From a phage: a stretch of DNA of 64,000 bases. Below the pieces are notes generated by a model that worked only from the letters and a program-made list of their open reading frames with translations, ran no database searches and had not been told where the DNA came from. Position numbers and translations under genes: made by a program. The first letter of the stretch is position 1; the number at the start of each line of letters is the position of its first letter. This document shows positions 3,485-8,834 of the stretch, piece by piece. The stretch lies in the sequence record PZ534534.1, one strand, 5' to 3'.

Positions 3485-3768
3485 GAGTTGCTGCACTGTT
3501 TATTGTGTGCTTGTTATTATGTGGGTGTGCAACCAGCGTTGAGAGAGAATACAAGATTGACCCTCCTGATGTAGGAAGGTTGATTGTTAAACCCCCGGAA
3601 GGTGCCATGAAACCACCTGCTAAAGCTATGCCTTTGAAGAAAGGTGCGCCAGATGCAGTGAATTCTGGCATTATGAGGGATAATAATCTGTCTTGTAGCA
3701 ATGATAGAGCTAAATTGATCATTTTGCAAGACTATATTAGAACACTGTTTCCAAAGGAGAGAGGTTAA
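3481..3768 (+). CDS. outer-membrane lipoprotein spanin (o-spanin, Rz1-like)
   Basis: Signal peptide with lipobox-like LLLCGC, Pro-rich 95-aa product; classic spanin gene pair arrangement. Confidence 0.65.
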   Translation: MRVAALFIVCLLLCGCATSVEREYKIDPPDVGRLIVKPPEGAMKPPAKAMPLKKGAPDAVNSGIMRDNNLSCSNDRAKLIILQDYIRTLFPKERG

Positions 3769-4193
3769 TGTCTAAGATTTACGGACCGTGTTCTGAAAAG
3801 CAGAAGATGATCCTTGAAAACGATGCAGATATTTTGGTAATCGGCGGTGCCGCAGGGTCTGGCAAGTCGTTCCTCTTGCAATTGATGCCACTTAAAATTA
3901 TTGATGACCCCCACAGCTCTGTGGTTATGTTCCGAAGAACAACCCCACAGTTGGAAGGTGAGGGTGGACTATGGCCTAAAGCAGTAGCTATTTATAGTGA
4001 TCTGCCTGAAAACATTAAGCCAAAGTTCAGAGAGAAGGATCATAAGTTCATTTTTCCACGGTTTGATCCGAACACCGGCAAGTGGGATAGAAGCAAAAAG
4101 GGAGCTGTTGTAAAATACTGCCACATGGAGTATGTACAAGATAAGCTTAACCATCAAGGGCTTGAGTATACCATGGTTTGCTTCGATGAGGGT
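3768..4193 (+). CDS. terL: terminase large subunit, exon 1 (ATPase Walker A GGAAGSGKS, Walker B MVCFDE)
   Basis: Walker A/B motifs typical of terminase ATPase domain; ORF ends with in-frame stop immediately after the predicted 5' splice site (GAGGGT|TAATT). Confidence 0.8.
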
Positions 4194-5076
4194 TAATTTG
4201 TAGCTCTCGTAAAACCTCCCTAATTGCGGGGAAATCTTTATTATTGACACCACCAACCTGTCATGGTAACATGATAGAGGCTTCGAAGAGAGATCGAAGG
4301 TATGGTAACAGTGTGTTAATTTAGATAATCCGCAGCGAAGCATCCGAGAGGATGAACGTTCAACGACTAGTCGAAAGACGTAGAATCAAGCGATTCGAAA
4401 CGGGAGGGTGAATGTGTAATACTAAAAAATGTATGGATTGCCAAAGAGTTCTACCTATTGATGATTTCTTTTTATCATCTAAGAGCAAGGATGGATACTC
4501 AGGTACATGCAAGGAATGCTATATGTACTACAGGAAGGGTGGATCTCGTAAAAACAAAAATATGGTTAAGAGAGATGACGCAGCATTGTTTATTCAAGAC
4601 TTGCTGAAGAAAGGTGAACTTTTTGAATGCAAATCTTGTCATGAAAGTATGCTCGCTGATAGTTTTTACACAAAACGTGACTATGGTAAAGTATATCTGG
4701 TTACGAACAGGTGTAAGATGTGTGAAAAGTTTTATCAGATTGAGAAGAAATTTCACATAACAAAAGATGAATACTATCGTCTACTCTCAGATCAAGATCA
4801 TAAGTGTGCCATTTGTAGAATATCCCTTGATGAGTATAGGACGCAAGGGTATAGAGATTTCTTTTGTGTTGATCATGACCATAAAACTGGTGCTGTAAGA
4901 GGGTTGCTTTGTGATAAATGCAACAGAGCTTTAGGTTTCTTCCAAGAGGATGAGGAAACTATTCTTAGAGCGGCAGAGTATTTACACATTCATAAGATAT
5001 AGTCTGGTCTGCATGGAGACATGCAGCTGCCTGAAAATGGCGGGGCAAGACTAGCGACCTTGCCCGAACATAAACG
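4194..5076 (+). mobile_element. group I intron 1 (td-like) in terminase gene, carrying an HNH endonuclease ORF
   Basis: Begins TAATTT after exon-terminal U; 3' core CTGCATGGAGACATGCAGCTG...GGCGGGGCAAGACTAGCGACCTTGCCCGAACATAAACG closely parallels the T4 td intron core as recalled from memory; exon reading frames are restored across it. Confidence 0.7.
4412..5002 (+). CDS. intron-encoded homing endonuclease, endonuclease VII-like HNH zinc-finger type
   Basis: Motif CAIC...VDHDHKTGAVRGLLCDKCNRALG matches the recombination endonuclease VII / HNH pattern; several CxxC pairs; own RBS GGGAGGG. Confidence 0.8.
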   Translation: MCNTKKCMDCQRVLPIDDFFLSSKSKDGYSGTCKECYMYYRKGGSRKNKNMVKRDDAALFIQDLLKKGELFECKSCHESMLADSFYTKRDYGKVYLVTNRCKMCEKFYQIEKKFHITKDEYYRLLSDQDHKCAICRISLDEYRTQGYRDFFCVDHDHKTGAVRGLLCDKCNRALGFFQEDEETILRAAEYLHIHKI

Positions 5077-5393
5077 ACACAATTCGAATGGGAGCAGATA
5101 GACTATCTGATGTCTCGTCTGCGATCTCAGTCAAAGTATCCATCAAGAATGGTTATCAGCTGTAACCCCGATTCAGAACACATGCTTGCCAAACTGGTTA
5201 GATGGTGGTTGGACGATGAAGGGTATCCAGATCCGGAGAAATGCGGTAAGAAAAGATATTTTATCCGACGCGACGGTGAATTTATCTGGGGAGACTCTAA
5301 AGAAGAGTTGATAGAGAAATACACCACGGTTAACGGACTGGGTGTTGAGATCAAGCCAAGACCGTTGTCATTCTCGTTTATAGGCGCAACCAT
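5077..5393 (+). CDS. terL: terminase large subunit, exon 2
   Basis: In-frame continuation (TQFEWEQIDYLMSRL...SFSFIGATI) with no RBS at the internal ATG (5110); boundaries inferred from frame conservation and td-like intron ends. Confidence 0.65.
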
Positions 5394-6372
5394 TAAATGA
5401 TAGTGGCTTCGTGCAGAAATGCACGTCGAATAACTTCGTTAATTGCTGGGAAATCCGATTGCTAAACGGACAATCAGCAGCTATAATTACCCTTCCGAAC
5501 CTGTAGTAGGGAGATGTTTGAAATGAAAAATTTAGGCTTTTTAGGCTACAATCATTATTGTGCTACATACGATGGCAGAATTTACAGTCTGTATTCTAAT
5601 AAATTCCTCCATCCTAATGTGCAGAAAAAGACTGGCTATGCTATGGTAACTTTGTGCGAGGACGGTAAAAAGTTCCAAGTGCTCGTTCACAGAGTGATTG
5701 CTATGACTTTTGTTGATAATGACAATCCCAGCGTGAAAACTCAAGTAAACCACCTAGATGGTAATAAGTTGAATAACGCCGCATGGAACCTTGAGTGGAC
5801 AACGCCTGAGGAAAACACACATCACGCTCATGAAATGGGACTTAAAAAGGACTATGTCAATAAATACAGGTCCCTGGATGATGCCACTGCTCTTGAAATA
5901 TGTAGGCTGTTAGAACAAGGCGCAAGGGTAAAAGACATTTGTGAAATGTTCGGTGTCAATCAACCACTTGTAAGTGGTATAAAGAATGGCTCAGTATACC
6001 CAGATATTTCTAAAGAGTTTAACTTTAGAAAAGTGCCAACCTCTAATCGGATAAGTGAGCACAAGATAATAGGTATCTGCGAGGATCTTAGTGATAAGGT
6101 CTTGTGTGTCAATAAAATAGCTAAGAAGTGGGGAGTAAGTTTTAGTGTTGTTAAAGGAATAAAAGACCGTAAGACTTACACCTATATTTCAAACAATTAC
6201 GATTGGTAATGTAGTTCAACGACTATCCCGAGAGGGAGTAGGGCGCAAGCTTATGGCGCTCGAAAAGCGAAGCACCCTGAAATGGGTGGTGATATAGTCT
6301 ACTCTGCATGGTAACATGCAGCAGCACGTAAAGGTGCGGAAGGTGGTGTTGCGACCACCTTTGAATATAAGG
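5394..6372 (+). mobile_element. group I intron 2 (td-like) in terminase gene, carrying an HNH endonuclease ORF
   Basis: 3' core ACGACTATCCC...GGGAGTAGGG...GATATAGTCTACTCTGCATGGTAACATGCAGCAG plus P9-like hairpin AAGGTGGTgttgcgACCACCTT; the exon-3 frame opens only 2 nt before the predicted 3' splice site. Confidence 0.7.
5514..6209 (+). CDS. intron-encoded HNH homing endonuclease with C-terminal HTH
   Basis: Motifs VHRVIAMTFV...VNHLDGNKLNN...NLEWTTPEEN are the canonical HNH endonuclease signature seen in phage homing endonucleases. Confidence 0.85.
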   Translation: MFEMKNLGFLGYNHYCATYDGRIYSLYSNKFLHPNVQKKTGYAMVTLCEDGKKFQVLVHRVIAMTFVDNDNPSVKTQVNHLDGNKLNNAAWNLEWTTPEENTHHAHEMGLKKDYVNKYRSLDDATALEICRLLEQGARVKDICEMFGVNQPLVSGIKNGSVYPDISKEFNFRKVPTSNRISEHKIIGICEDLSDKVLCVNKIAKKWGVSFSVVKGIKDRKTYTYISNNYDW

Positions 6373-7177
6373 ATTCGATAATCCTGTCTGCCTGAGAGAT
6401 AACCCAGAATACCTTGCTTTCCTTGAAGGTCTACCAGAGCTGGAAAAAGCTCAGCTTCTCCATGGTAACTGGTTTGCAAAGCCTGAGGGTGCAAACTATT
6501 TTCAAAGATCTTTCCTTCGTGATGCCGATAGAGTACCTCTTGGGTCAGTATCTTGCAGGGCATGGGATAAGGCAGGAACCGAGAGAACTTCCGGTAATAA
6601 ATTTCCTGACTTTACTGCCAGTATTAAGGTAAGTAAAGATAGCGACGGCTTTTATTACCTGTCCGGTGATTATTGTCCTGAGAACGTGGATGACGGGAGG
6701 TATTCCACAGGTCTGGAAGGCAAGTTCTGTAAAAAGGCTGGTGAACGAGATGTGATCATCAGGAAACAGGCGCAGTTCGATGGTGATGATTGCATAATCG
6801 TCTTCTCTGTGGACCCAGGGCAGGCAGGTAAGAGTGAGTTCTTAACCTCCTCCAGATCCTTGCTTGCCGAAGGGTTCAGGGTTGAAGAAGACCCAATGCC
6901 TTCCAACAAGTCTAAACTGACAAGGTTCTCACCTTTTGCCAATCTTGCCCAACAAGGAATGGTGAGGATTGTAAAATCCAGTTTCCATCCTGATACTCTG
7001 GAAGCATTTCTGACTGAACTTGAAAAATTCAACGGGGAAAGATCAACATTTAACAGAAAAGACGACTGGGCCGACTGCGTAGCTTCTGCGATTAATTTCC
7101 TGGAGAAAGAGGAGGTAGCACTTCCTTGTGTGATTCCATCAATCTCATCACCTTCTATGTTCAAGCGTTTTATCTAA
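6373..7177 (+). CDS. terL: terminase large subunit, exon 3 (nuclease domain)
   Basis: DNPEYLAFLEG...LHGNWF... motif block typical of the terminase C-terminal nuclease domain; frame matches exons 1+2 for a total of about 515 aa. Confidence 0.75.
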
Positions 7178-7180
7178 GTG

Positions 7181-7209
7181 TTGCCAATCTTAATTAGATG
7201 TGGTACAAT
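7181..7209 (+). promoter_or_regulatory. sigma70-like promoter (TTGCCA-17-TACAAT)
   Basis: Hexamers with 17-nt spacer upstream of the portal gene. Confidence 0.5.
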
Positions 7210-7277
7210 AAAGTAATTGGAGATACTAGCCCTCTGACGAGGGCTATTTTGTTATACTGTTTTGAGGGGTAAAGCTT

Positions 7278-8834
7278 GTGTCCAAAAAGAACCGCAGGAA
7301 ACACAACGCCACAGCCAAAACTGTGAATAAATCTGGGAACGCAGGCGCACCAACTCATAATGTTCGTATGAGTGAGATCGGTTCTGGCGCACTTTCCCAA
7401 ATTATGGCAGAATCGCAATCTATGATGGTTGAGGAATTGCGTTGGCCTCAGCTGATTGCCACAGTGGAGACTATGAAATGTGATTCCACAGTTGCTACTG
7501 CCTTAGATACAAAATATGTTTTCATCACGAAAGCATTCAATGATTTTAAGATCCTTTATAATGTTAAAAGTGAAGACTCTAAGAAAGCTGCCGAGCTTAT
7601 AGAGTATTCTTTGCGTAATTTGGCAAACCAACAAACTCTTCGAGATATTGCAAGAAGCGCAGCTACCTTTAACGAGTATGGTTTTTCACTGTTTGAGAAA
7701 GTATACCGCAGAGAGAAAGAAGGTAAATATGCCGGGATGCTTCTTATTGATAAAATTGCATTCCGACCTCAGGCCAGCCTGTCCAGATCAGAGCCGTTTG
7801 TTTTTGACAAGAATAGTAGAACACTGACAGGTATTTATCAGTCACCTAATGCATTTCTAAACACTCAGAATGCACGCTGGGCTGGACCTCTTGCTGCAAT
7901 GCCTTCAAAAGGCTTTAATGAGCCTGAAATTTTCATCCCTGCTAAAAAGCTTATGCTCATGACCCTGTCAGGAACAGAATCTAACCCTGCAGGTGTGTCA
8001 CCGATGATAGGTTGCTACAGATCTTTCCGTGAGAAAGTTCTGATTGAAAACCTTGAGGTTGTTGGCTGTTCCAAAGACCTTGGTGGCGTGCTTGAGCTGA
8101 AAATTCCTTCCAATATTTTGAACAAGGCCAGCATTGACCCGAATTCAATGGAAGGGAGAATGGTTGCAGACCTTATGCTTGACGCAGCAAACGCCCATAG
8201 TGGTGAGCAAAGTTTCTTTATACTTCCGTCTGATAGAGATAAGTCTGGTAAAGAGCTTTACTCCATGACCCTGAAGGGGGTTGATGGTATGGGTAAGCAG
8301 TATTCGACTAAAGATTTGATTGATGCCCGTAAGAAGGCGATTCTTGACCGTTTCGGTGCTGGCTTTATTAACCTCGGTAACGATAACGTTGGATCCTTCT
8401 CTCTGTCTGAGTCAAAACAGTCTATCCATGGTCATTTTGTTCAGCGTGATATAGATATTATCACTGAAGCCTTCAATAAGGATCTTATTCCACAGCTTCT
8501 GGCATTGAATGGTATCATCCTTGAAGATGATGATATGCCTAAACTGAAACCTGGTCTGATTGAAGAGGTGGACATGGAGAGCTTCTCCAAATTTGTCCAG
8601 AGGATCGGTGCTGTAGGTTACTTGCCAAAAACTCCTGCAGTAATTAATAAGATTCTTGAAGTAGGCGGGTTTGATGAAAGATTTGACGAGGACATGGATC
8701 AGGAAGAGCTGATGAAGCTCTTGGGCCAGGACATCAGTAGGGCTGGTGATGGAATGGCTGCAGGATCCACTGGTAACGGCACTTCTAAGATGTCATCAAC
8801 CAGAGATAATTCCATATCCAACATGGAAAATTAA
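7278..8834 (+). CDS. portal protein (putative)
   Basis: 518-aa protein immediately downstream of the terminase, conserved portal position and size; GTG start with GAGGGG RBS. Confidence 0.65.
   Translation: MSKKNRRKHNATAKTVNKSGNAGAPTHNVRMSEIGSGALSQIMAESQSMMVEELRWPQLIATVETMKCDSTVATALDTKYVFITKAFNDFKILYNVKSEDSKKAAELIEYSLRNLANQQTLRDIARSAATFNEYGFSLFEKVYRREKEGKYAGMLLIDKIAFRPQASLSRSEPFVFDKNSRTLTGIYQSPNAFLNTQNARWAGPLAAMPSKGFNEPEIFIPAKKLMLMTLSGTESNPAGVSPMIGCYRSFREKVLIENLEVVGCSKDLGGVLELKIPSNILNKASIDPNSMEGRMVADLMLDAANAHSGEQSFFILPSDRDKSGKELYSMTLKGVDGMGKQYSTKDLIDARKKAILDRFGAGFINLGNDNVGSFSLSESKQSIHGHFVQRDIDIITEAFNKDLIPQLLALNGIILEDDDMPKLKPGLIEEVDMESFSKFVQRIGAVGYLPKTPAVINKILEVGGFDERFDEDMDQEELMKLLGQDISRAGDGMAAGSTGNGTSKMSSTRDNSISNMEN

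Follow-up and report, generated by a model that had tools for sequence, protein, structure and literature searches.

The source of the 64,000-nucleotide stretch of DNA analysed here (PZ534534.1, hereafter the window) is an rV5-like coliphage (Vequintavirus), the region being 98% identical to Vequintavirus genomes. Its terminase large subunit gene, terL, consists of three exons (3768-4193, 5077-5393, and 6373-7177) and two group IA2 introns (4194-5076 and 5394-6372), each of which contains a nuclease ORF. The span 4194-6372, to which the original prediction of two intron cores with homing endonucleases referred, is exactly intron 1, exon 2, and intron 2. The features, with the basis of each assignment, are as follows.

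3768-4193, plus strand: terL exon 1, with Walker A and Walker B (...MVCFDEG) motifs (ORF list)
4194-5076, plus strand: intron 1, group IA2, 883 nt, ending in omega-G 5076 (RF00028 and intron-less alleles)
4194-4409, plus strand: intron 1 5′ core (covariance-model alignments and segment folds)
4410-4991, plus strand: intron 1 P8/nuclease cassette (comparison with ORF-less alleles)
4412-5002, plus strand: intron 1 ORF, 196 aa (Pfam Endonuclease_7)
4992-5076, plus strand: intron 1 3′ core, with J8/7, S, P9, P9.1, P9.2, and omega-G (folds and comparison)
5077-5393, plus strand: terL exon 2, 317 nt (comparison with intron-less alleles)
5394-6372, plus strand: intron 2, group IA2, 979 nt, ending in omega-G 6372 (RF00028 and intron-less alleles)
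5394-5481, plus strand: intron 2 5′ core, the 88 nt upstream of the ORF, P1-P5 (covariance model and folds)
5482-6213, plus strand: intron 2 P6/nuclease cassette (comparison with ORF-less alleles)
5514-6209 or 5523-6209, plus strand: intron 2 ORF, 231 aa (ATG 5514) or 228 aa (ATG 5523)
6214-6372, plus strand: intron 2 3′ core (RNAalifold on 7 related introns and segment folds)
6373-7177, plus strand: terL exon 3, nuclease/RNaseH-like domain (intron-less alleles and spliced protein)

Comparison with related phages lacking one or both introns, which had been proposed along with the prediction, gives exact boundaries and finds each intron alone, natural alleles missing exactly 4194-5076 or 5394-6372 fixing the junctions to the base. 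Intron 1 is precisely absent from PDX (4192/4193 joined to 5077), C9, YP-6, and intron-less phages, and intron 2 from WalterGehring, nomo, naswa, and intron-less phages. The junctions without introns (marked by a slash) read GAGGGC/ACGCAG at site 1 and GCAACAAT/ATTCGA at site 2. The uninterrupted terL of sibling phages is 1548 nt in length, and a Terminase_6N match covers aa 25-294 of the spliced TerL. An in-frame stop follows each exon, with TAA opening intron 1 and TGA lying two codons into intron 2, while exons 2 and 3 have no start codon or ribosome-binding site of their own at the junctions and exon 3 starts mid-codon (AT/A).

The terL of phage rV5 was published in three parts (NC_011041, ORF64ABC) in 2013 (Kropinski et al., PMC3606486). 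In several GenBank records of this phage group, among them HdK5, phiWec193, nomo, and naswa, terL exons and nuclease genes appear as hypothetical or separate proteins. With the exon/intron coordinates fixed exactly, terL can be annotated as one 515-aa protein.

Ribozyme anatomy of the two introns

Structural comparison over P1-P9, one of the tests suggested for the original prediction, identifies both segments as genuine group I introns of the same subgroup, IA2. At the Rfam gathering threshold only tRNAs were detected in the window, the introns being overlooked because the ORFs interrupt their cores, and they were found by an E-value scan and through ORF-less alleles. The curated gathering score of RF00028 is 50 bits, and the window copies fall below it (48.5 bits for intron 1, 21.4 + 35.7 bits for intron 2) since the model does not reach across the ORF inserts. 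The natural ORF-less alleles, with cores 98-99% identical to those of the window, score above it, with 84.9 bits for the 99%-identical intron 1 of rV5 and 87.5 bits for intron 2 of C9.

In both introns the 5′ splice site carries a U-G pair and the last base is a G. In intron 1, GAGGGU/UA is paired with UAGCUCUC in P1, the last base of exon 1 being the U of the U-G pair, and the intron ends in ...AAACG; in intron 2, CCAU/UA is paired with UAGUGG and the intron ends in ...UAAGG. Subgroup IA2 is defined by P7.1 and P7.2 between P7-5′ and P3-3′, joined by G-U-A (PMC3428280). These are present in both introns, as GUCGAAAGAC-GUA-GAAUCAAGCGAUUC in intron 1 and UCCCGAGAGGGA-GUA-GGGCGC...GCGCUC in intron 2.

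The 5′ core of intron 1 contains, in order, the P1 3′ strand with the IGS, P3-5′ (CCUCCC), the P element (from 4222), an extended P5, the Q element (from 4329), P6 (GAGA loop), the R element (4358-4369), and P7.1-GUA-P7.2. The P3-3′ strand (GGGAGG, 4402-4407) is also the Shine-Dalgarno sequence of the nuclease ORF. P8 is closed by a perfect 10 bp stem of GAAUGUGUAA (4410-4419) and UUACACAUUC (4982-4991), in which the AUG is buried; the 3′ core has the S element GAUAUAGUC at 4996-5004 and the P9 hairpin at 5009-5026 (GAGA loop). Compared with rV5, the window shows one compensatory change (C-G to U-A) in the P5 extension.

The 5′ core of intron 2 consists of the P1 3′ strand, P2 (CGUGCA-GAAA-UGCACG), P3-5′ (CUUCG), the P element, P4, P5, and the Q element AAUCAGCAGC, with the core sequences AATTGCTGGGAA and AATCAGCAGC lying within 5394-5481. 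Its 3′ core has the R element, P7, P7.1-GUA-P7.2, P3-3′ (CGAAG), P8, and the S element (6291-6299), followed by the P9 hairpin (6304-6321, GUAA loop), P9.1, P9.2, and omega-G.

The conserved core helices P3-P8, P7 included, are present with covariation support. When the 3′ halves of all 12 introns were aligned with MAFFT, P7.1/P7.2 and P9.2 came out of register between the intron 1-like and intron 2-like groups, and pairs were therefore counted on the intron 2-like subfamily only. Among 7 relatives in this subfamily, RNAalifold identified compensatory changes in 18 of 36 pairs, located in P7.1, P7.2, P8, P9, P9.1, and P9.2; the P7 pairing of GACUA with UAGUC is invariant across them. From their ribozyme anatomy and boundaries, the introns of this phage are expected to splice, and in CB7, a related phage of the genus Certrevirus, splicing of a terL intron has been shown by RT-PCR (PMC7344957).

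A search of the 64-kb window with the R, S, and P9 motifs found no introns beyond these two. One minus-strand R-like match (2376-2387, 1 mismatch) lies inside a tRNA and was taken as chance. A scan for sigma-70 promoters gave 13 sites, with 9.6 expected, which is not above chance.

The nuclease genes and their placement

The protein encoded in intron 1 possesses two CxxC...CxxC zinc-ribbon repeats and an Endonuclease VII-type His-Me finger domain. Endonuclease_7 (PF02945) matches aa 110-192 with 76.1 bits (cutoff 23.6, E-value 2e-21), the protein is assigned to endonuclease VII in PHROG, and its VDHDHKTGAVRGLLCDKCN segment aligns with T4 endonuclease VII and Hpy99I (PDB matches), the catalytic DHDH...N being aligned. 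The prediction of an endonuclease VII-like ORF is borne out, but its placement just before the 3′ core is too simple: P8 houses the ORF, on the stretch from P3-3′ to the S element, with its final codons and UAG stop overlapping J8/7 and P7-3′. Family membership carries no information on Holliday-junction resolution, and a putative homing role is favoured by the location in an intron. No intron-encoded counterpart in the Endonuclease VII family appears to have been characterised biochemically. No donor of this gene was identified, the best match outside Vequintavirus being a Listeria phage record (40.6% aa identity) and the next (about 30%) free-standing endonuclease VII genes of T7-like phages.

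The intron 2 protein is an I-HmuI-like HNH nuclease with C-terminal HTH modules. It matches HNH_3 (28.0 bits, cutoff 24.8), with HTH_23 just under its cutoff (24.0 against 24.6), phrog_59 (E-value 5e-51), and I-HmuI (1U3E, E-value 3e-11 over aa 11-154) with the HNH motif aligned. Here too the predicted family was correct and the position, 5′ of the entire core, was not: the ORF lies inside P6, and P1-P5 and the Q element are upstream of it, at 5394-5481. The two nucleases, which had been described as unrelated, show no pairwise similarity (E-value 2.5) and belong to different families (Endonuclease_7 vs. HNH_3 with HTH).

Natural ORF-less alleles exist for both introns. In place of the P8 cassette of intron 1, rV5, RudolfGeigy, and naswa have an 18-nt hairpin, AAGCG(A/G)UUGUUGUCGCUU, while in C9 and RudolfGeigy a 21-nt hairpin, CAAGCCUGAAU(G/A)UUCAGGAAG, stands where the P6 cassette of intron 2 would be. 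As in both introns a short hairpin exactly replaces the ORF-bearing stem, gain or loss of the nuclease genes independently of the introns, also part of the original prediction, is supported.

Polymorphism and descent of the introns

Both introns are present or absent at one precise site among near-identical genomes. In a spread sample of 44 vequintaviruses with exons at least 95% identical, 8 of the 9 possible combinations of intron state occur.

Both introns with ORF: 3
Neither intron: 22
Both introns ORF-less: 2
Intron 1 ORF-less, intron 2 with ORF: 1
Intron 1 absent, intron 2 with ORF: 2
Intron 1 with ORF, intron 2 absent: 8
Intron 1 ORF-less, intron 2 absent: 5
Intron 1 absent, intron 2 ORF-less: 1

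Nearly isogenic, culturable E. coli phages in the BASEL collection differ in intron state, for instance Bas51 (intron 1 with ORF, intron 2 absent), Bas52 (both introns ORF-less), and Bas56 (both absent). No paper analysing Vequintavirus intron polymorphism was found in a literature search.

Intron state is perfectly associated with flanking exon bases in a small set of 14 alleles, which are not phylogenetically independent. At position -1 of site 1, intron-bearing alleles have T and those lacking the intron have C or A, and at +3 the respective bases are A and G; at site 2, position -3 is C in alleles with the intron and A in the others. Two of these intron-linked bases, site 1 -1 and site 2 -3, complete the P1 pairing, and selection for this pairing could mimic co-conversion. 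Between the near-identical phages nomo and pangalan, the sole differences are intron 1 and three exon bases next to it, as fits a recent gain or loss.

The ORFs might be regarded as decaying passengers of a late stage of the cycle that mobilise nothing, with the polymorphism reflecting intron loss only. ORF-less forms are indeed common in both introns (approximately 23 of 53 records matching intron 1 at ≥95% identity, by difference) and about half of the genomes are intron-less. However, this explanation is unlikely, given that neither truncation nor an internal stop was seen in any nuclease ORF copy examined and that the catalytic residues align with those of T4 endonuclease VII and I-HmuI; the nomo and pangalan difference also fits recent gain or loss. 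The intron 1 ORF differs from that of HdK5 by 4 synonymous and 2 non-synonymous changes, while dN/dS of the intron 2 ORF is 0.01-0.04 among vequintavirus copies (up to 25 synonymous changes vs. 1 non-synonymous), with intact orthologues in 24-2-1 (82% aa identity) and nepoznato (62%). Both ORFs are intact and, judged by these substitutions, under purifying selection, and the possibility of pseudogenes, raised with the original prediction, is not borne out.

The original prediction further held that one intron had been duplicated within terL and that the local paralogues later gained or swapped different endonuclease genes. The introns lie in the same gene only 317 nt apart, are both of subgroup IA2, and carry nuclease genes that are separable modules. 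The shared sequences noted at the time are also real: CTGCATGG(A/T)(G/A)ACATGCAG is exact at 5009-5026 and 6304-6321 (4 strand-wise matches vs. 0.05 expected) and the ACGACTA... element, GTTCAACGACTA, at 4358 and 6214, to which can be added GATATAGTC, exact at 4996 and 6291. These are however the P9 hairpin, R element, and S element of the whole family, equally exact in introns of T4 td, PA7 RNA polymerase, phiTE nrdA, and nrdD, and do not support local common ancestry. The two 3′ halves are 60% identical, whereas PA7 and td reach 71.5% and 68.6% with intron 1, and phiTE nrdA and navn nrdD approximately 74% with intron 2, each of the two introns ranking 9th among 11 comparators for the other. 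They are thus not each other's closest relatives, as a local paralogous pair would be. In neighbor-joining bootstrapping, 95% support places intron 1 with PA7 and td, and 91% places intron 2 with its terL orthologues from other subfamilies. None of the 500 replicates recovered the two as sisters, so that local duplication finds no support. Their architecture also differs, with intron 1 lacking P2 and having a P5 extension of about 95 nt, and intron 2 having P2 and a short P5. Each occurs alone in many siblings, and intron 2 occurs alone at the same terL site in other subfamilies where TerL is only 35-42% identical. Duplication within terL is considered very improbable.

The idea that the insertions do not splice, TerL being three assembling polypeptides and the ribozyme-like motifs relics, could appeal to the stop after each exon, to the separate CDS annotation in HdK5, nomo, and naswa, and to non-splicing split genes known in phages, such as the Aeh1 NrdA split by mobE (discussed in PMC7344957), but it is scarcely credible in view of exons 2 and 3 without translation starts, exon 3 opening mid-codon, complete ribozyme cores that without the ORF exceed the Rfam cutoff and show compensatory pair changes, and P1-compatible exon bases kept only in intron-bearing alleles.

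The terL gene of this phage is therefore best read, with high confidence, as carrying two mobile group IA2 introns, acquired independently of each other, that would be excised, spread by homing, and control translation of their nucleases in the following way. After transcription, each ribozyme would fold P1-P9.2 and excise itself by guanosine-initiated two-step transesterification, and ligation of exons 1-2-3 would yield an mRNA of 1548 nt encoding a TerL of 515 aa, colinear with the uninterrupted protein in siblings. Intron 1 combines a td/PA7-like core with an Endonuclease VII-family His-Me finger gene inside P8; intron 2 has a core that also occupies this terL site in Avunavirus and Phapecoctavirus, with an I-HmuI-like HNH gene inside P6. 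In mixed infection, each nuclease would presumably nick or cut intron-less terL near the insertion site, and recombinational repair would then copy the intron with a few flanking exon bases. The predicted translation signals are buried in ribozyme helices (for intron 1 the Shine-Dalgarno sequence in the P3-3′ strand and the AUG in the P8 stem, for intron 2 the Shine-Dalgarno sequence in P6a), so that translation and folding are expected to be mutually exclusive.

A broader reading is put forward tentatively, as a possibility. Vequintavirus terL may display, within a single genus, the whole homing cycle at two sites of an essential gene (empty, ORF-less, and with nuclease), the nuclease genes moving as cassettes with their own closing stems, in place of the P8 or P6 hairpin and independently of the intron, and the nucleases may serve as weapons against co-infecting intron-less vequintaviruses, comparable to PhiPA3 gp210. 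The two-intron terL is an ordinary element of an already known kind with a tidy population polymorphism, and little in it is conceptually new biology. Its main value is as a natural experiment for homing, co-conversion, and intron-mediated competition in a packaging gene, and the intron-state variants may also be of use for characterising an Endonuclease VII-type intron nuclease.

Comparison with known systems

The closest published case is rV5 (PMC3606486), with the same gene, the same two sites, and ribozyme cores 98-99% identical to those of the window. Its intron 2 with HNH ORF is 99.5% identical at the nucleotide and 100% at the amino acid level, but its intron 1 is ORF-less, with the 18-nt P8 hairpin instead of 4410-4991. 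The form in the window, both introns with ORF, is shared by HdK5, phiWec193/196, and four ‘Campylobacter phage’ records, where the pieces either lack annotation or are listed as hypothetical proteins.

Intron 1 is of the same subgroup as the T4 td intron and has the same helix set, with R, S, and P9 identical or nearly so, including CUGCAUGG-NNA-CAUGCAG, and its last 79 nt are 82% identical to td, with which it groups together with PA7 (the 95% bootstrap above). The td intron differs in interrupting the thymidylate synthase gene and in carrying the GIY-YIG nuclease I-TevI in P6, whereas that of intron 1 is Endonuclease VII-type and in P8. The RNA polymerase intron of the phiKZ-like phage PA7, the nearest 3′-half relative of intron 1 found, is likewise mobile and interrupts an essential gene (virion or expression), but it lies in another host gene and phage family and appears to be ORF-less. 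The intron HNH nuclease of PhiPA3, gp210, serves as a weapon in co-infection, directed at the other phage (Birkholz et al., 2024, PMC11620839).

The intron 2 ORF belongs to phrog_59 (P59), which is listed for Bastillevirinae intron HNH endonucleases with I-HmuI-type NUMOD domains. Enzymes of the I-HmuI type nick a single strand near the insertion site (PMC3428280), and by analogy the same would be expected of the intron 2 nuclease. It differs from I-HmuI in its target, terL rather than DNA polymerase, and in a C-terminal region of two HTH-like modules.

Introns recur in genes for the terminase large subunit, as in phiAGATE, SIOphi, and LL-H. The terL genes of the Bastillevirinae phages phiAGATE and SIOphi have two or three introns per gene (PMC11878797), and terL intron 1 of phiAGATE shares the R, S, and Q elements exactly, although insertion sites and nuclease families differ from those described here. 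In SIOphi, exon skipping occurs between neighbouring introns (PMC11878797); skipping of the 317-nt exon 2 in the present phage would shift the reading frame.

Location and identity of the terL introns

Across their entire length, positions 3700-7300 of the window share 98% identity with Escherichia phage HdK5 and with further genomes of the rV5-like genus Vequintavirus, and 4194-6372 falls within the large terminase gene, terL, with an o-spanin gene upstream and the portal gene downstream. The gene is divided into three exons:

terL exon 1, 3768-4193
terL exon 2, 5077-5393
terL exon 3, 6373-7177

Natural alleles of sibling phages fix the limits of both introns to the base. Intron 1 (4194-5076) is missing from PDX, YP-6 and C9 and intron 2 (5394-6372) from WalterGehring, nomo and naswa, while pangalan, AlexBoehm, FFH2 and ECP32 are without both and have an uninterrupted terL of 1548 nt, equal to the total of the three window exons. 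When joined, these exons encode a 515-aa protein with a Terminase_6N match (aa 25-294) spanning both junctions. Intron 1 is inserted after the Walker B segment of the terminase ATPase (MVCFDEG|T), and intron 2 after GATI|FDNP. Both have an in-frame stop codon at or near their start and G as their last base. A strong hairpin resembling an intrinsic terminator (TAGCCCTC-TGAC-GAGGGCTA followed by TTTTGTT) is located at 7227-7246, in the interval from terL to the portal gene; rV5 and HdK5 have a corresponding annotated terminator.

The window copies score below the Rfam group I cutoff of 50 bits (intron 1, 48.5; intron 2 halves, 35.7 and 21.4) because their ORFs interrupt the core. ORF-less alleles served as natural controls, with 84.9 bits for intron 1 of rV5 and 87.5 bits for intron 2 of "Campylobacter phage" C9. 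Both introns possess a P1 with a U-G pair at the 5′ splice site, the classical P, Q, R and S elements, a GNRA-loop P9, and P9.1 and P9.2. In both, P7.1 and P7.2 are linked by GUA, a hallmark of subgroup IA2 (PMC3428280). When intron 2 was folded jointly with six of its relatives, RNAalifold predicted P7, P7.1, P7.2, P8, P9, P9.1 and P9.2, with compensatory changes at 18 of 36 pairs. For intron 1, comparison of rV5 and naswa with the window identified a C-G to U-A compensatory change in the P5 extension hairpin CUGUCAUG-GUAA-CAUGAUAG (C-to-T at intron position 69, window 4262; G-to-A at 80, window 4273).

No additional intron motifs were seen in the 64-kb window. A seven-gene tRNA cluster (Arg, Tyr, Ser, Thr, Met, Pro) lies at 1852-2664. 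One of its members, an odd 99-nt "tRNA-???" at 2321-2419 with a 4-base anticodon according to ARAGORN and a weak Rfam score (35.5 bits), bears an R-element-like ATTCAACGACTA on its minus strand (2376-2387), probably by chance.

Nuclease genes and their cassettes

The original prediction of an endonuclease VII-like gene in intron 1 and an HNH endonuclease gene in intron 2 is borne out by domain analysis. ORF 4412-5002 belongs to Pfam Endonuclease_7 (E-value 2e-21), the closest solved structures to its product being Hpy99I and T4 endonuclease VII, whereas ORF 5514/5523-6209 has HNH_3 and HTH domains and matches I-HmuI (1U3E, E-value 3e-11). Pairwise comparison of the two proteins found no similarity; both are members of the His-Me finger superfamily. 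All copies of both ORFs are full length, the intron 2 ORF has a dN/dS of 0.01-0.04 within the genus and is still intact in orthologues that share 82% and 62% aa identity with it, and the intron 1 ORF has four synonymous and two non-synonymous changes relative to HdK5. Judged by their sequences, the nuclease genes are not pseudogenes.

The intron 2 ORF had been placed 5′ of the entire core, which is incorrect, as 5394-5481 upstream of it comprises P1-3′, P2, P3-5′, P4, P5 and the Q element, and the ORF is held in P6. The intron 1 ORF is held in P8. In each intron, ORF-less and ORF-bearing alleles differ by the swap of exactly one helix:

Intron 1, 4410-4991, P8 with ORF cassette, perfect 10-bp closing stem GAAUGUGUAA/UUACACAUUC that includes the AUG
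Intron 2, 5482-6213, P6 with ORF cassette

In their place, ORF-less alleles have an 18-nt hairpin, AAGCG(A/G)UUGUUGUCGCUU, in intron 1 and a 21-nt hairpin, CAAGCCUGAAU(G/A)UUCAGGAAG, in intron 2. With the swapped helices excluded, no more than 1-7 core positions distinguish the alleles, so that the nuclease genes act as cassettes that can be separated from the intron.

The Shine-Dalgarno sequence of the intron 1 ORF is the P3-3′ strand (GGGAGG, 4402-4407) and its stop codon lies within P7-3′, while that of the intron 2 ORF (AGGGAG) is paired in P6a. As these signals form part of ribozyme helices, nuclease translation and ribozyme folding may compete, as is known for T4 introns. A sigma-70-like TTGCTA-17 nt-TATAAT (10/12 matches) lies across the intron 2 core/cassette boundary (5459-5487), just 5′ of the HNH ORF; overall, the sigma-70 scan yielded 13 sites where 9.6 were expected, no excess over chance.

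Relationship between the two introns

The introns share CTGCATGG(A/T)(G/A)ACATGCAG, exact at 5009-5026 and 6304-6321 (0.05 chance matches expected), GTTCAACGACTA (4358 and 6214) and GATATAGTC (4996 and 6291), also exact. It had been proposed from such motifs that one intron arose from the other by local duplication, followed by independent invasion or swapping of the nuclease gene. The motifs are indeed present in both but do not signal duplication, since they are family-wide: CUGCAUGG-NNA-CAUGCAG and the R and S elements are exact in T4 td, the RNA polymerase intron of PA7 (φKZ-like), phiTE nrdA and the nrdD introns of phages navn and arall, and further introns bear covarying versions.

Over the R-to-omega-G half, with 11 comparators per intron, the two introns are 60% identical and each ranks ninth of 11 for the other. 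Intron 1 is closer to PA7 (71.5%) and td (68.6%), and intron 2 to its orthologue in Avunavirus 24-2-1 (85%) and the phiTE nrdA and navn nrdD introns (~74%). Neighbor-joining bootstrap grouped intron 1 with PA7 and td (95%) and the terL intron 2 orthologues together (91%), with introns 1 and 2 as sisters in 0 of 500 replicates. Their architectures also differ, intron 1 having no P2 and a ~95-nt P5 extension and intron 2 having P2 and a short P5. Local duplication is not supported.

In Avunavirus 24-2-1 and in Phapecoctavirus nepoznato, intron 2 is found with its HNH gene at the very same position, GATI|FDNP, although the nepoznato TerL is only 35-42% identical to that of the window. Among the 30 records with the intron 1 nuclease, identity never falls below 98%, and the closest relative beyond them shares 40.6%. 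For these reasons intron 2 seems to be long established, and the intron 1 nuclease to have arrived recently and to be restricted to the genus. The observation originally made is thus partly confirmed and its interpretation partly supported, in that independent nuclease acquisition stands without the intron duplication.

Other elements occur in relatives. In Escherichia phage 24-2-1 (OK181861.1), terL has intron 2 and two further insertions (~154-1116 and ~1411-1649). One, ~960 nt long and in frame, interrupts the Walker A motif (GGAAG...SGKS) and resembles an intein. The other, ~11 codons 5′ of the intron 1 site, is a third group I intron and has no ORF (RF00028, 34 bits). Several selfish elements appear to use terL as a hotspot. 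In Escherichia phage navn (Vequintavirus, MN850642.1 64260-67991) and in phage arall (Justusliebigvirus), intron-like elements split nrdD, the gene for anaerobic ribonucleotide reductase; navn seems to have two of them. Their 3′ halves share 70-74% identity with intron 2 across the complete R-to-omega-G half (77-85% in local BLAST segments).

Intron polymorphism and previous descriptions

Among 44 vequintaviruses drawn evenly from 128 records with exons at least 95% identical, eight of the nine possible intron-state combinations were seen, about half of the sample having neither intron. At 95% identity or above, intron 1 was found in 53 records (at least 80% covered, i.e., with its ORF, in 30) and intron 2 in 30, counts which take in duplicate and near-identical records. 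Exon bases adjacent to the splice sites tracked intron presence perfectly in 14 aligned alleles. At site 1 these are position -1 (T if present, C or A if absent) and +3 (A if present, G if absent), and at site 2 position -3 (C if present, A if absent). The intron-linked bases complete P1 with a U-G pair (site 1, -1) and a C-G pair (site 2, -3). In the terL region, nomo and pangalan match except for intron 1 and three exon bases next to it. The pattern would fit homing accompanied by short co-conversion tracts, selection for the ability to splice, or both. GenBank "Campylobacter phage" records A1xx, C9, C14 and C15 (MG0656xx; UNVERIFIED, host C. jejuni) also have these introns, in a number of states, and their host label looks doubtful given this and their ~98% identity to E. 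coli vequintaviruses across terL.

The element itself is already known. The rV5 terL was published as being in three parts by Kropinski et al. (PMC3606486) and is a three-part join in its RefSeq record, BASEL phage records annotate a spliced terL with a "putative homing endonuclease", and the announcement of LL12 describes an intron in its terL. Multiple terL introns have been described in Bastillevirinae (PMC11878797), and splicing of a terL intron was shown in the related Certrevirus phage CB7 (PMC7344957). Our literature search did not find descriptions of the P-helix assignment, the exact P8/P6 cassette replacement or the polymorphism of intron states and the exon bases linked to it; such details refine what is known rather than define a new kind of system. 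The most useful outcomes of the analysis are correct terL coordinates for annotation and a ready-made near-isogenic phage set for homing and competition work in the spirit of the PhiPA3/PhiKZ study.
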